Assembly: GCF_988242995.1 (NCBI RefSeq)
Contig: NZ_OZ547043.1
Strand: one strand, 5' to 3'
DNA: 64,000 bases
Shown: one piece after another, positions 1 through 37,558 of the stretch
Numbering within the stretch: the stretch's first letter is position 1
How the letters are laid out: each line of letters begins with the position of its first letter
Program-made: the position numbers and the translations under genes
Notes under the pieces: generated by a model
What the model was told of the DNA's origin: nothing
The model's input: the letters and a program-made list of their open reading frames with translations, nothing else
Database searches by the model: none

Positions 1-867
1 TCCTTTGCTGCCTGCGATATCAATCCCCTTGTTGCCCCCCTCAGAAGCGCCAAAGGTTTCGATCACTTTGCCCTCAGTCGGCCAGCGCCAGGTGGAGATA
101 GGCGTACTGGTTGATGTACTGCTGACAGTCGGCTCGGTTGTGCTTGCTGTTGGTACCGTTACAGGCGCTGTGACCGTGGTCGCAGTTGGCTTGTTGTTCG
201 GCAACATTTTGTTAGCACTCTGTTCACCCGAAGACTCAGAATACGTAATTGTCGGTTGCGAAGCAACAGCAACGGTGGAATTTTGTGCAGGCTTGATCAC
301 AACTCCTTGCTCTGCTGCATCGGCCTGGGTAATGGCATTTCCGCCAGTGATTGGCGTACCGGAAGCATTACCCACCTGTAAGGTCTGACCGACGTTCAGC
401 GCGTATGGTGCCTGAATATTGTTGCGCTGAGCAAGGTCACGGAAATCGTTGCCAGTAATCCAGGCGATATAGAAAAGTGTGTCGCCTTTTTTCACGGTAT
501 AGGTACTGCCGCTATAACTGCCTTTCGGAATGTTCCCATACTGACGGTTGTAGACGATGCGTCCGTTTTCCATCTGTACCGGCTGCTGAGCTACTGGCTG
601 CACCGGCTGGATTTGCGGTTGTTGAGTTGCCTGAATTTGTGGCTGCTGTACCGGCTGAATTTGCGGTTGCTGAGCTGTAGACGTCGTCCCCATTTTCGGC
701 GGCGGCGTAATCAACATACCAGAATTGGTATTTGCAGGCGCATTGCCATTAACGGAGCTGACCGGGGCCGGTGGATTTGAAGTGTCAGAACAGCCTGCCA
801 GCCATAGCGAAACCAGTGACAAAGCCGCAATGCGGCGAACGGTGAATTTTGGGCTTCCCGCGCTCAT
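1..867 (-). CDS. nlpD: Murein hydrolase activator lipoprotein NlpD, 5' part only (3' end lies beyond window start)
   Basis: Reverse-strand ATG at 867-865 reads [26 protein letters not shown] (signal peptide plus lipobox) and stays open to position 1, passing through Q/P-rich tandem repeats near 590-690. Absent from the ORF track because it runs off the window edge. Confidence 0.85.
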
Positions 868-9751: not shown

Positions 9752-11000
9752 GGGAGTTCTACCGCAGGGGCGGGGAATTCTAAGTGATATCCATCATCGC
9801 ATCCAGTGCGTCCGGTTTATCCCCGCTGACGCGGGGAACACGCTTTTCCCCACGCGTCCAGATCTTCGACTGGCGGTTTATCCCCGCTGGCGCGGGGAAC
9901 ACTCATTAAATTGTTTTTCCCGATCCCAGCTCTGCGGTTTATCCCCGCTGGCGCGGGGAACACCTGGAGCGCAGAAAGTTTGATATCGAAAATGCCGGTT
10001 TATCCCCGCTGGCGCGGGGAACACAGTTAACAACCCGCGCCGAACAAGCCCGACAACGGTTTATCCCCGCTGGCGCGGGGAACACCAGGTTCGTAAAGGT
10101 GAACACGGCACGACGGCCGGTTTATCCCCGCTGGCGCGGGGAACACGCGTCGCCATTCTATTAGCTTTTCCTCATCACCGGTTTATCCCCGCTGGCGCGG
10201 GGAACACCCGACAATCTCCGCCTCCAGTCGGTCGACCTGCGGTTTATCCCCGCTGGCGCGGGGAACACTGTGCCCGACTGCGTGCCGCGTCGAGCGCCTG
10301 CGGTTTATCCCCGCTGGCGCGGGGAACACTTCGCCGCCATCATCCTGTGGTGCCAGTTGACCGGTTTATCCCCGCTGGCGCGGGGAACACATACCGCAGC
10401 AAATTACGGTTCCAGAAACGCGCGGTTTATCCCCGCTGGCGCGGGGAACACTGACACGTTAAACGGTGCGTTGTCGTCGCTGTCGGTTTATCCCCGCTGG
10501 CGCGGGGAACACCCTGCCGCCCCCTTTAGCCCATATGGGGGCGGCGGTTTATCCCCGCTGGCGCGGGGAACACTTCAACATTACGAAACGGGATCACGCC
10601 GCTGACGGTTTATCCCCGCTGGCGCGGGGAACACCGGCTCCGCGTCGACATAAAAGTCCTCGGGATCGGTTTATCCCCGCTGGCGCGGGGAACACATATT
10701 TCGCCCCGTCACGCTGAATCAGCCAGCCGGTTTATCCCCGCTGGCGCGGGGAACACTCGCTTTTAAAGCGCCGGAGGAAAGTAAGCTCCGGTTTATCCCC
10801 GCTGGCGCGGGGAACACTAGCATAAATTACCCGATCAGATCGCGGACATCGGTTTATCCCCGCTGGCGCGGGGAACACTCGATCAAAAATTTACAACCAA
10901 AGGCTTCAACCGGTTTATCCCCGCTGGCGCGGGGAACACTCCCCGGTATCAGAAATAATTCCCTGCTCGATCGGTTTATCCCCGCTGGCGCGGGGAACAC
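9752..11000 (-). CRISPR. CRISPR array, type I-E repeats, 21 repeats and 20 spacers
   Basis: 29 bp repeat CGGTTTATCCCCGCTGGCGCGGGGAACAC with exact 61 bp period, starts at 9813, 9874, ... 10972; all spacers 32 bp. Repeat at 9813 has one mismatch (CTGACGCG). A degenerate terminal repeat sits at 9752-9780 (about 19/29 matches). Leader is on the right, so crRNA is read on the minus strand. Confidence 0.98.
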
Positions 11001-11096
11001 ACTAAGCATACATAACTGTTTTTAAACAAATTTATTCCGCATCAACAATCTACCAACTAAATTAAAACATTTCCTTATTTTTAAAGAACAGATAAC
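11001..11096 (-). promoter_or_regulatory. CRISPR leader (AT-rich) between last repeat and cas2 stop
   Basis: AT-rich 96 bp abutting the newest repeat; contains CAATCTACCAACTAA at 11046-11060, also present at the same offset in the second array's leader. Confidence 0.8.
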
Positions 11097-12306
<1,210 letters not shown>

Positions 12307-12310
<4 letters not shown>

Positions 12311-19658: not shown

Positions 19659-19852
19659 ATATTAAAAATTATCTGTGATATATATCGTTCAATAAAATAT
19701 TTACATTATGAATAATCAAATAATTTTCATCAGTAATATATATGAATAATAAACATAGGCATAATATTCACATAAACAATATAAATTAAAAAAGGGTGCA
19801 GGAGACCAAACCATCACAATTCAATACGCGGGGTTTTACCCCCGCGTGGTGG

Positions 19853-20005
19853 CTACTTCTTCGATTCGTAAGCGAGAACTGCCTTAAACTCCATACCACG
19901 TTCTCTGATACTCAACTCACACAACGAGTCGCCTACCATCAGCGTGAATCCCAGTACTGTACAACACAGTACGATGATTGCCACAAGGGCATATTTTGTC
20001 AGCAT
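19853..20005 (-). CDS. Hok/Gef-family type I toxin (HokE-like), 50 aa
   Basis: Hand-translated minus-strand [53 protein letters not shown]: one TM helix then the Hok signature (SLCE...IR...AYES). GGGAGG Shine-Dalgarno 6 nt upstream. Not in the ORF track (below size cut-off); the 84 aa plus-strand ORF 19796..20050 is its antisense. Confidence 0.7.
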
Positions 20006-20270
20006 GTCTTGCCTCCCTGCAAAGAAGAGACTAACATTCGAATTGCTTAGGTTCGAACGCTGGCCTCAGGTTGATAGAAATATCGCCTGGGGCTTTTGTC
20101 CATCTGGAACCTCGCGAATGCTTAACGCCAGACAGCCTCAAGCACCCAACGCCATTCTATACTTGATAATTCTTCCAGCGGCGTTCACGTTTAAAATCAG
20201 GAATGCTGCTCGCAAAATAAAAACGCCCCCATCTTTTCAGACAGAGACGTTTATTAAGCGGTACGATATT

Positions 20271-36065: not shown

Positions 36066-36111
36066 GTGAGGAAGACCGGGCGGGAAACTGCCCGGCCTGA
36101 ACATACCTGAA

Positions 36112-36249
36112 TGGTTATCCCCGCTGGCGCGGGGAACATAAGTTCGACAACTTAAAAAATGATAACAAGTCCGGTTTATCCCCGCTGATGCAGGGAACAT
36201 AATAAAAACTTTAACTAGTTCGGTTTATCCCTGTTTTTACAAGGAATAT
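36112..36249 (-). CRISPR. Degenerate CRISPR remnant (3 decayed repeats)
   Basis: TGGTTATCCCCGCTGGCGCGGGGAACAT, CGGTTTATCCCCGCTGATGCAGGGAACAT and CGGTTTATCCCTGTTTTTACAAGGAATAT, separated by 32 bp and 20 bp. Confidence 0.75.
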
Positions 36250-36702
36250 TAACTACACTCGATGTATTTAGAATAAAAGACAATACGAATCGCACTTTAT
36301 CAATTTTCACTTAAAGTATGAACTGGATATCTTTATTCATAAGAACTATTCATCAACAGCGTATAGAGGCGATTATGTAAAACCACTCATTAGCCTCAAA
36401 ACAAAGACAAATTTCCAGATTTATTACTTAATCAATGAATAACAAGCTTAAAAAATACACTGTTATTCTAAAGAAAAAATTAACAGGCATTAATTAATAT
36501 TAAAAAAATAATATGTTAAAATTTCTTAACGGTTTAAGGATTATACAAATAACACTTTGATTAAATTTTATTTTTTGTATCGATAATTGTGAACTTGTCA
36601 TATATGGAGAGCTATTTTGAACATGAGGTGTTACGTGGATATGTTGCTTAATACGAGTACTGCTAATATAAAAACTTGAGAAAGAGATAACGGGTTATAT
36701 GG

Positions 36703-37219
36703 TGGTTTATTCCCGCTGGTGCGGGGAACTCATCAGTGATATCCAACATTGCGGAGCTAAACGCGGTTTATCCCCGCTGGCGCGGGGAACTCAATTAGCC
36801 CGCCTCGCGCGGGTTTTTTTGTGCCGGTTTATCCCCGCTGGCGCGGGGAACTCTTTACTTATCTGCAAATATTTTTTGTCAGCTGCGGTTTATCCCCGCT
36901 GGCGCGGGGAACTCACGAACGCGGCACACCAGGGCGTCTCATCGTCCGGTTTATCCCCGCTGGCGCGGGGAACTCGAACACGACAGGAGTGATAAATGTA
37001 CGCACATCGGTTTATCCCCGCTGGCGCGGGGAACTCGGCTGATAGTGCTTCTGATTATTCGGCGCAAGCGGTTTATCCCCGCTGGCGCGGGGAACTCTAG
37101 GACCCAATATAAAACCGACTGGTTATTTTCGGTTTATCCCCGCTGGCGCGGGGAACTCTTTCAGTCTGGAACACAACGGCGTTAAATAACCGGTTTATCC
37201 CCGCTGGCGCGGGGAACTC
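36703..37219 (-). CRISPR. Orphan CRISPR array, type I-E repeats, 9 repeats and 8 spacers
   Basis: Repeat CGGTTTATCCCCGCTGGCGCGGGGAACTC, period 61 bp, starts 36703 (degenerate distal repeat, 3 mismatches), 36764 ... 37191; 32 bp spacers; leader on the right; no adjacent cas genes. Confidence 0.97.
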
Positions 37220-37300
37220 ACTAAACATAACCTATTATTAATTATTGATTTTTTAAGTCAGTCACAATCTACCAACTTAACAGAAACACACAAACAACAC
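37220..37300 (-). promoter_or_regulatory. Leader of the second CRISPR array
   Basis: AT-rich; contains CACAATCTACCAACTTA at 37264-37279, matching the first array's leader motif at the same distance from the last repeat. Confidence 0.7.
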
Positions 37301-37558
37301 ATCCATTATGTTAAAGAGCACTTAATTCATTGATTGAAAAGCCAAATATTTAAAGTAATTCTATACCGACTAAAATCCACCAAACTCCGACGTAATAATT
37401 TTCACTCCAACGAAAAATTAACGCCACAGAATTTGTAGATAATGACAATGATTAGTCCGGAATGGGCAAAATGGATGAGTTTTCAGAGGCGACAAAAAAT
37501 ATAAATGAGTGGAAGTCTTTACAGGTTCCACCCATTTATAACGCTTATAAATGTTTAA

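Follow-up and report, generated by a model that had tools for sequence, protein, structure and literature searches.

The motif shared by two type I-E CRISPR leaders of an Escherichia coli locus is very probably the upstream docking element of Cas1-Cas2

The two CRISPR leaders in the 64 kb stretch of Escherichia coli DNA analysed here (the window) carry the same short motif at the same distance from the first repeat of their arrays, and this motif is in all probability (roughly 0.9) the upstream Cas1-Cas2 docking element of the type I-E leader, variously called the integrase anchoring site (IAS), CBS2, or the upstream binding or recognition motif. The original prediction was correct in its observation of such a motif, which was however already known, and its interpretation is supported, being in line with a decade of E. 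coli adaptation work. The value of the finding lies in confirmation, and no new biology comes with it.

Two arrays and the motif common to their leaders

The window corresponds to the iap-cas-cysH ... ygcE-CRISPR-queE-eno region of E. coli, with a gene order syntenic with that of K-12. Its eno-pyrG segment is 100% identical to that of strain ST2747, the nearest there among 5,426 complete E. coli genomes. Two arrays are present, both made up of 29-nt CRISPR2-type repeats (CGGTTTATCCCCGCTGGCGCGGGGAACWC), with a degenerate repeat at the end opposite the leader and either cas2 or queE on the leader side. The cas-adjacent CRISPR2.1 array (9813-11000, minus strand) adjoins cas2 and consists of 20 copies of the repeat CGGTTTATCCCCGCTGGCGCGGGGAACAC, of the ...GAACAC ('CRISPR-A') type, with 19 spacers. 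The orphan CRISPR2.3 (CRISPR-II) array (36703-37219, minus strand) lies between ygcE and queE and has 9 repeats of the ...GAACTC ('CRISPR-T') type with 8 spacers; a leaderless CRISPR remnant is found at 36111-36200. In the usual orientation the repeat of both arrays reads G(T/A)GTTCCCCGCGCCAGCGGGGATAAACCG, which places the transcription of both on the minus strand, and the 'last' repeat in plus-strand coordinates is consequently the first, leader-proximal one.

All eight type I-E cas genes of the window are full length. Both adaptation genes are intact and on the minus strand: cas2e (11097-11390) encodes a protein of 97 aa with a full-length match to TIGR01873 (128 bits) and 83% identity to K-12 Cas2, and cas1e (11387-12310) one of 307 aa with a full-length match to TIGR03638 (381 bits) and 85% identity to K-12 Cas1. 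The orphan leader is some 25-26 kb away from this cas1-cas2 pair (11097-12310). The genes ihfA and ihfB are carried by E. coli outside the window. By the nomenclature of PMC3737337 and PMC3903273 the system is E1 (cas-EO) with leader-A, the major E. coli variant, K-12 being E2 with leader-T. The locus of the orphan array, between ygcE and queE (ygcF) with leader2.3 on the queE side, is syntenic with K-12, BL21 and nine other E. coli genomes.

The final plus-strand repeats end at 11000 in the cas-adjacent array and at 37219 in the orphan array, and the motif CAATCTACCAACT[A/T]A stands at +46 to +60 beyond the leader-proximal repeat in both, that is at 11046-11060 and 37265-37279, with identical offset. 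A search with CAATCTACCAACTWA allowing up to two mismatches returned exactly two matches in the window, at these same two places, against 0.10 expected by chance, so that the claim of one motif at one offset in both leaders stands. Toward the repeat (minus strand) the motif reads TTGGTAGATTG, occupying leader positions -46 to -60: the transcribed strand is TTAGTTGGTAGATTG in the cas-adjacent leader, where its position matches that of CBS2 (-46 to -57, PMC5224486), and TAAGTTGGTAGATTG in the orphan (CRISPR2.3 / CRISPR-II) leader, where it is identical to the motif of K-12 and BL21 leader2.3 at the same offset. The perfect block common to both leaders is 14 nt long, ACAATCTACCAACT, at 11045-11058 and 37264-37277, positions 11045 and 37264 both being A; toward the repeat, on the transcribed strand, it reads AGTTGGTAGATTGT (leader -58 to -45). 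The orphan copy had been placed at 37264-37279, and the first of these bases falls one base outside the 15-mer, although within the 14-nt shared block. At the centre of the motif is a GTAG core (-53 to -50), found on the minus strand at 11050-11053 in the cas-adjacent leader, where it corresponds to the GTGG (IAS) that is essential in the K-12 leader, and at 37269-37272 in the orphan leader.

The remainder of the two leaders is far less alike. The cas-adjacent leader (11001-11096, minus strand), of type leader-A / L1, fills the 96 nt that separate the cas2 stop codon from the first repeat, and the orphan leader (leader2.3), including the distal module described below, over 37220-37381 on the same strand. 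In an ungapped comparison of 110 nt anchored at the leader-repeat junction, the two are 40% identical outside the 14-nt block, and an in-register run of at least 14 nt was reached in a single one of 200,000 shuffles. Both do begin with ACTAA(G/A)CATA, as had been stated, this being read at 11001-11010 (ACTAAGCATA) and 37220-37229 (ACTAAACATA). The leader-repeat junction is TTAGT (-5 to -1) on the minus strand of each (11001-11005 and 37220-37224), position -1 of the orphan leader being polymorphic (A/T) among E. coli strains. Between junction and motif, the minus-strand segments positionally equivalent to the proximal IHF site (-9 to -35) are 11009-11035 in the cas-adjacent leader, which is AT-rich, has the C-18 and A-17 that are conserved across species and matches 7 of 9 consensus positions, and 37228-37254 in the orphan leader, which differs from the BL21 leader2.3 segment by one base (-26). 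The IHF site is assigned here by position, as the consensus is matched at just 7-8 of 9 positions and in several registers of AT-rich sequence, a weak and ambiguous match.

To place the motif in a wider setting, one genome per species was scanned with a Cas1e alignment, which yielded 80 loci with Cas1 proteins 75-99% identical. In most of these the first repeat follows about 1,300 nt after the start of Cas1, a regularity that allows leaders to be stacked at the junction without alignment. The original prediction had held that loss of the motif from other genomes would speak against it; GGTRG is in place, exactly at -54 to -50, in 54 of the 69 distinct cas-adjacent I-E leaders of other species (Gammaproteobacteria), and within 1 nt of that position in 4 more, which leaves the prediction unrefuted on this point. 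Peaks of weighted information content fall on G-54, G-53 and G-50, on C-18/A-17 and on T-5/G-2; at the junction itself, 88% of weighted leaders have T at -5 and 97% have G at -2. Within the species, the orphan motif with its GTAG core is invariant in all 11 E. coli leaders examined, including that of strain 2012C-4221, which has lost all its cas genes. Because the motif is intact in this cas-less strain, within-species conservation is uninformative about current use, and the informative comparisons are those between paralogous leaders and those across species.

Probable docking of the integrase and competing explanations

The identity of the motif follows from its correspondence with an element dissected experimentally in E. 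coli. In Yoganand et al. 2017 (PMC5224486), block mutagenesis of the leader identified CBS2 (-46 to -57) as needed for acquisition. Of its base pairs just the four in the centre, GTGG (-50 to -53), proved essential, both for acquisition in vivo and for IHF-dependent integration in vitro, and these were named the integrase anchoring site; mutation of this core abolished acquisition and integration although IHF was still bound (PMC5224486). In the leader anatomy given by a 2023 review, Cas1-Cas2 occupies -1 to -4, IHF -9 to -35, and an upstream element ('UBS') at -50 to -55 is brought to Cas1-Cas2 by the IHF bend (PMC10011333). In K-12, the sequence at +46 to +57 is CAACCCACCAAC in CRISPR-I and CAATCTACCAAC in CRISPR-II, at the same offset in both leaders, and positions -53 to -50 are GTGG in array I and GTAG in array II, compared with GTAG in both leaders of the window. 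The same element is reportedly the 'upstream motif' of the Cas1-Cas2-IHF integration complex of Wright et al. 2017. K-12 Cas1 has been solved in complex with leader DNA and IHF (PDB 5WFE, 5VVJ-L).

The likeness of the window leaders to the system of PMC5224486 extends to CRISPR subtype, 29-nt repeat, offset, orientation and the sequence TTGGTRG, as well as to the TTAG(A/T) junction and the AT-rich segment at -9 to -35, and the Cas1 of the window is 85% identical to the protein studied. There are differences, however: the core that was mutated is the GTGG of the K-12 leader-T and not GTAG as in the window, and the cas-adjacent leader is a leader-A / L1 of the E1 (cas-EO) variant, not the published substrate. 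The protein contacts and the IHF dependence would accordingly apply to the window by analogy with published experiments on K-12 and BL21 leaders, beside what is observed here of sequence, offset, conservation, intact cas genes and the leader-end gain in strain MEW (see below).

By this analogy, IHF bound to the AT-rich segment at about -9 to -35 would bend the leader into a U-turn. The bend would fold the segment at -46 to -58 (AGTTGGTAGATTGT, core GTAG at -53 to -50) onto a Cas1 lobe of the spacer-loaded Cas1-Cas2 seated at the leader-repeat junction (TTAGT|G), and this folded contact would restrict the first strand transfer to the first repeat. Since the contact point would be fixed by geometry, the motif would have to keep a fixed distance from the repeat. 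The motif had been described as an integrase/IHF docking region; its position, that of CBS2 (PMC5224486), agrees with an integrase contact, but it is not the IHF site, which would lie between motif and repeat. A looser parallel can be drawn with the lambda attP intasome and other IHF-bent recombination sites, in which an architectural protein bends the DNA and a distant arm-type site reaches the recombinase at the crossover; that recombinase belongs to another family and its arm-site sequences are unrelated, so the comparison is offered as an analogy only. Selected insertions were still obtained in a plasmid cassette with just the first 43 bp of leader-A, from which the motif is absent (PMC3737337). 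It follows that acquisition can proceed without the motif on multicopy supercoiled DNA when insertions are selected, and that the motif raises efficiency or specificity.

A block of this kind could also be conserved mainly as an element of the pre-crRNA promoter, either as the start region or as a -10-like hexamer (TAGATT / TAGAAT within GGTAGAWT), and not as an integrase contact. Transcription of K-12 CRISPR-1 begins some 50 nt before the first repeat (PMC10011333), a -10 box has been located between -43 and -69 of leader-T (PMC3737337), and the form that the motif takes in many species, GGTAGAAT, includes a hexamer agreeing with TATAAT at 5 of 6 bases. We nevertheless consider this improbable. 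The likely start of K-12 CRISPR-2 is about 95 nt upstream (PMC10011333), yet the offset of the motif follows the repeat and not the start, and the core is needed in vitro by purified Cas1-Cas2 and IHF, where there is no transcription (PMC5224486). Taken together, these two points argue against transcription as the chief cause of the fixed offset. Moreover, scans of both leaders for consensus promoters found no more sites than in shuffled sequence, and the most conserved bases, the Gs at -54/-53 and the G at -50, are not at promoter-hexamer positions. Transcription may all the same contribute to the conservation of the motif.

A functionless block, shared only because the two paralogous leaders descend from one ancestor or underwent gene conversion, is more doubtful still, and we regard it as very unlikely. 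The leaders are evidently related, with several colinear blocks over about 170 nt, and leader duplication does occur, as second arrays in Pectobacterium carry near-exact copies of the cas2 3' end and leader. In the window, however, the flanks have diverged down to about 40% in-register identity around a block that is 14/14 identical, the core is found at the exact offset in the 54 of 69 leaders across Gammaproteobacteria, and it was required in the published mutagenesis (PMC5224486). Least credible of all is a site for some other regulator of CRISPR expression, be it a nucleation site for H-NS or LeuO or the target of an unknown factor. E. coli CRISPR-Cas is indeed silenced by H-NS, and transcription of CRISPR-2 is H-NS dependent (PMC10011333); but the motif is less AT-rich than any other part of the leader and has a conserved GG and G, which sets it apart from H-NS sites, its conservation extends to taxa well outside the enterobacterial H-NS/LeuO circuit, and nothing points to a further factor.

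The orphan array as a probable acquisition target

The orphan array had been proposed to be still a valid integration target for the Cas1-Cas2 encoded beside the other array, and this is supported on several counts. Each array has a junction motif, an AT-rich putative IHF segment and an upstream motif; with this full set of elements in both, the single Cas1-Cas2 beside array 1 could load spacers into either. The array cited for BL21-AI in PMC5224486 (NC_012947.1:1002908-1003730) lies between queE and ygcE and has a leader with the same GTAG-core block; its location makes it the homologue of the orphan array of the window. It is at this queE-ygcE array that expansion was scored in standard acquisition assays in BL21-AI, with Cas1-Cas2 supplied in trans (PMC5224486; Yosef et al. 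2012 as described in PMC3737337), and the first 40-60 bp of leader2.3 were required for expansion, a finding of Yosef et al. reported by Díez-Villaseñor et al. (PMC3737337). Resident E. coli systems likewise insert spacers at both leader2.1 and leader2.3 (PMC3737337, PMC3903273), and leader2.3 is similar in E1, E2 and cas-less strains (Almendros et al., PMC3903273).

The window leader shares with the K-12 / BL21-AI leader2.3 (CRISPR-II, ygcE-ygcF/queE) its locus and synteny, an identical block at -45 to -58 and a Cas1-Cas2 that acts, or in the window would act, in trans. It differs from it at three positions in the first 60 nt (-1, -26 and -39): position -1 is T in the window and A in K-12 and BL21, and the proximal IHF-like site is AATCAATAATT in the window as opposed to AATCATTAATT. 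The orphan repeats are furthermore of the T variant in the window and of the A variant in K-12 and BL21, and the resident Cas1-Cas2 is of the E1 variant in the window and of the E2 variant in K-12. This comparison of K-12 with the window suggested that position -1 of the orphan leader (A/T) and position 2 of the repeat (A/T) might covary with the cas variant 26 kb away. Such covariation is rejected, since O157:H7 F7508 and ECC-1470 have cas genes of the window type (E1) but an orphan leader ending in TTAGA, and both orphan repeat variants are found with both cas types among E. coli genomes.

Spacer content offers a view of past activity at this leader. A match to queE was obtained in 5,422 genomes and the leader region is kept in 4,562 of them, while the orphan spacers of the window were found in strain MEW only. 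MEW is the nearest genome for the orphan locus, and over 1040 bp of leader and flank (queE) the two are 100% identical. The eight orphan spacers of the window (1-8) recur in MEW with one additional leader-proximal spacer, in the order new spacer, 1, 1, 2-8, whereas the orphan array of ST2747 has just the oldest, trailer-end spacer in common with the window. Between the window and MEW, the cas-adjacent arrays have internal spacers in common and differ at their leader ends. The MEW pattern is supported as the expected signature of polarised gain at this leader variant, a reading that comes from the spacer order and to which loss of the unit in the window lineage would be the alternative. Together with the BL21 homologue scored in assays, insertion at leader2.3 and the intact Cas1-Cas2, the additional leader-end spacer of MEW argues for the orphan array as a functional target. 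Judged from its sequence, the E1-variant system of this strain would have two acquisition-competent arrays, which matters for CRISPR typing and for spacer chronology.

For orphan spacer 6 a near-complete match (31 of 32 positions) was found in a tail-fibre gene of Escherichia phages; the one mismatch is at spacer position 1, and the flank, compared with an AWG PAM, is a non-consensus AGG. A plasmid search with the orphan spacers returned just a mislabelled chromosome and a weak Aeromonas match.

A distal module in both leaders

Further from the repeat, both leaders share a distal module composed of GGTGGATTT, 46 nt, a perfect IHF consensus and TCTTTAA, all read on the minus strand. In the cas-adjacent leader it spans 11081-11151, with GGTGGATTT (11143-11151) inside cas2, the IHF consensus AATCAATAAGTTA (11093-11105) spanning the cas2 stop codon, and TCTTTAA at 11081-11087. 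In the orphan leader it spans 37311-37381, with GGTGGATTT at 37373-37381, the IHF consensus AATCAATGAATTA at 37323-37335 and TCTTTAA at 37311-37317. The three blocks are at -151 / -105 / -87 in the former and at -162 / -116 / -98 in the latter, 11 nt further from the repeat. Across species the module occurs in two main registers, -151/-105/-87 and -139/-93/-76, and the distance from TCTTTAA to the proximal GGTRG is 33 or 22 nt, compared with 44 nt in the orphan leader. When the distal parts of both leaders are aligned locally, the score exceeds that of 99% of dinucleotide shuffles. The K-12 CRISPR-I leader is without the distal IHF consensus.

The distal GGTRGAT of cas-adjacent leaders is written in the Pro-Val-Asp codons of Cas2, and codon choice at these positions suggests constraint at synonymous sites. 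In 49 of 52 distinct cas2 genes the third base of the Val codon is a purine, against 45% of the other Val codons of the same genes (Fisher p ~4e-13, uncorrected for phylogeny), and the Pro codon is CCG in 46/55, against 34% of the other Pro codons of the same genes (Fisher p ~8e-11, likewise uncorrected for phylogeny). A cas2 pseudogene upstream of the orphan leader was considered as well and rejected: tblastn with Cas2 and Cas1 gave no match there (E above 0.6), and just short colinear DNA blocks are present.

It is conceivable, although we hold it to be rather unlikely, that the distal module (an IAS-like GGTRGATTT, 46 nt, the IHF consensus and TCTTTAA) is a second docking module, giving rise to a doubly folded integration complex with two IHF in most enterobacterial I-E systems. 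Such a module would be written into the 3' end of cas2 (CCG-GTR-GAT), would persist in the orphan leader, which has no cas2 ORF, at quantised distances of 22, 33 or 44 nt, and would be partly lost in the K-12 model leader, whose distal IHF consensus is broken. Were the module to have a function and to be new to the literature, I-E integration with a single IHF, as pictured for K-12, would be the exception, and leader architecture would constrain the coding sequence of cas2, a gene constrained at synonymous sites by the integrase of its own operon. As a leader cut to about 60 bp supports acquisition under Cas1-Cas2 overexpression (PMC3737337), any role of the distal module would be quantitative.

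The general concept has precedents. According to a preprint that cites Santiago-Frangos et al. 2021, several IHF sites, and motifs lying as far as 100-200 bp upstream, are found in 'some I-E' leaders. Leaders with multiple IHF sites and motifs are therefore already a published concept, and the distal module would be the sole lead here with some chance of novelty. Compared with the phased multi-motif leaders of I-F, I-C and some I-E systems (Santiago-Frangos et al. 2021; bioRxiv 10.1101/2023.05.26.542337), the module resembles them in supplying a second IHF consensus and a second GGTRGATTT, and its registers step by 11 nt, which would fit several IHF sites together with phase-sensitive subtype motifs. 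It differs from them in that the motif sequences of the window are unlike the I-F inverted repeats, that Cas2 in the window is not fused to Cas3, and that there is just one IHF in the published model of E. coli I-E integration. Where the distal blocks vary among E. coli orphan leaders, the variable positions are the R of GGTRG and the N4 of the IHF consensus.

Shared distal module and the 3' end of cas2

Beyond the proximal GGTRG, the known docking motif of Cas1-Cas2, the two leaders share the blocks of a distal module, located at 11081-11151 in the cas-adjacent leader and at 37311-37381 in the orphan leader of the ygcE-queE interval. The order is common to both: GGTGGATTT, then 46 nt, a perfect IHF consensus (WATCARNNNNTTR) and TCTTTAA. 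The orphan copy of the module lies 11 nt farther from the repeat than its cas-adjacent counterpart, and comparison across species shows that the spacing between TCTTTAA and the proximal GGTRG is 22, 33 or 44 nt according to the register of the distal module.

On the cas-adjacent side, a sequence resembling the integrase anchoring site, CCGGTRGAT (11143-11151), lies inside cas2, where it encodes Pro-Val-Asp. Among 80 Cas1e loci of other species (L003-L082), the Val codon has a purine at its third base in 49 of 52 genes, as opposed to 45% of other Val codons, and the Pro codon is CCG in 46/55 cases compared with 34% elsewhere, both figures being uncorrected for phylogeny. Judging by this codon test, itself uncorrected for phylogeny, the Pro-Val-Asp codons of cas2 appear to be under synonymous-site constraint. 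The cas2 stop codon is in turn overlapped by the distal IHF consensus (AATCAATAAGTTA, 11093-11105). A C-terminal Cas2 tail of the form (D/E)NQ-stop is kept in many species; the Cas2 of K-12 does not have it, and the K-12 leader likewise does not have the distal IHF consensus found at the stop codon. This joint absence suggests that the tail is conserved on account of the DNA site.

Leader length and leader duplication in other species

In most of the same 80 loci the start of Cas1 precedes the first repeat by about 1,294-1,312 nt. The distance from the cas2 stop codon to the repeat falls into two classes, of about 85-87 and 98-99 nt, and leader length is therefore quantised. Two Pectobacterium loci, L021 (10442) and L022 (10818), carry second arrays a few kb downstream in which both the 3' end of cas2 and the complete leader recur almost exactly, with the motif again at -54. 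These two cases show that duplication of a leader together with its array does occur.

Variation of the CRISPR loci among E. coli strains

Strain 2012C-4221 (L088) has neither cas genes nor the cas-adjacent CRISPR2.1 array, hok/cysH directly adjoining iap, and it retains a five-repeat orphan array with leader and motif intact. In strain S1 (L087) the orphan array is interrupted by an IS421 transposase and the cas3-to-cas7 region is replaced by IS1. GN02270 (L089) has a cas1 gene with an internal stop, yet its cas-adjacent array holds 18 repeats. In WP9-S17-ESBL-11 (NZ_AP022287.1) some 54 kb separate the cas2-leader match from the queE match, and the two are on different strands, which points to an inversion or insertion lying between its CRISPR loci. 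Of the 5,422 E. coli genomes matched by a leader-plus-queE query, about 860 gave a match confined to queE (query positions 367-1040) and have neither the orphan leader nor its array.

The interval between cas3 and cysH contains a putative Hok/Gef toxin gene at about 19850-20010, placed by its position in the annotated genomes of ST2747 and MEW; hok/sok has been reported in every strain except those with the E2 cas variant (PMC3903273).

Repeats and spacers

The second base of the repeat distinguishes the two arrays of the window: cas-adjacent repeats begin GTG... and orphan repeats GAG.... This arrangement is reversed in K-12, and among the E. coli genomes sampled either repeat variant is found with either cas type. 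The orphan array of MEW (L083, 2531-3169) carries the newest spacer of the window twice in tandem, beneath one extra new spacer, and has undergone both unit duplication and acquisition.

Orphan spacer 6 (36854-36885) agrees at 31/32 positions with a tail-fibre gene found in the Escherichia phages vB_EcoM-569R10, -720R5, -705R4 and -783R5, in which the target is flanked by AGG, not AWG. Orphan spacer 7 (36793-36824; AATTAGCCCGCCTCGCGCGGGTTTTTTTGTGC on the plus strand) resembles, in its GC stem and run of seven Ts, an intrinsic terminator captured as a spacer. The CRISPR2.2 remnant (36111-36250), which has neither a leader nor a copy of the motif, comprises two to three degenerate repeats and one spacer, also present in MEW and O157:H7.
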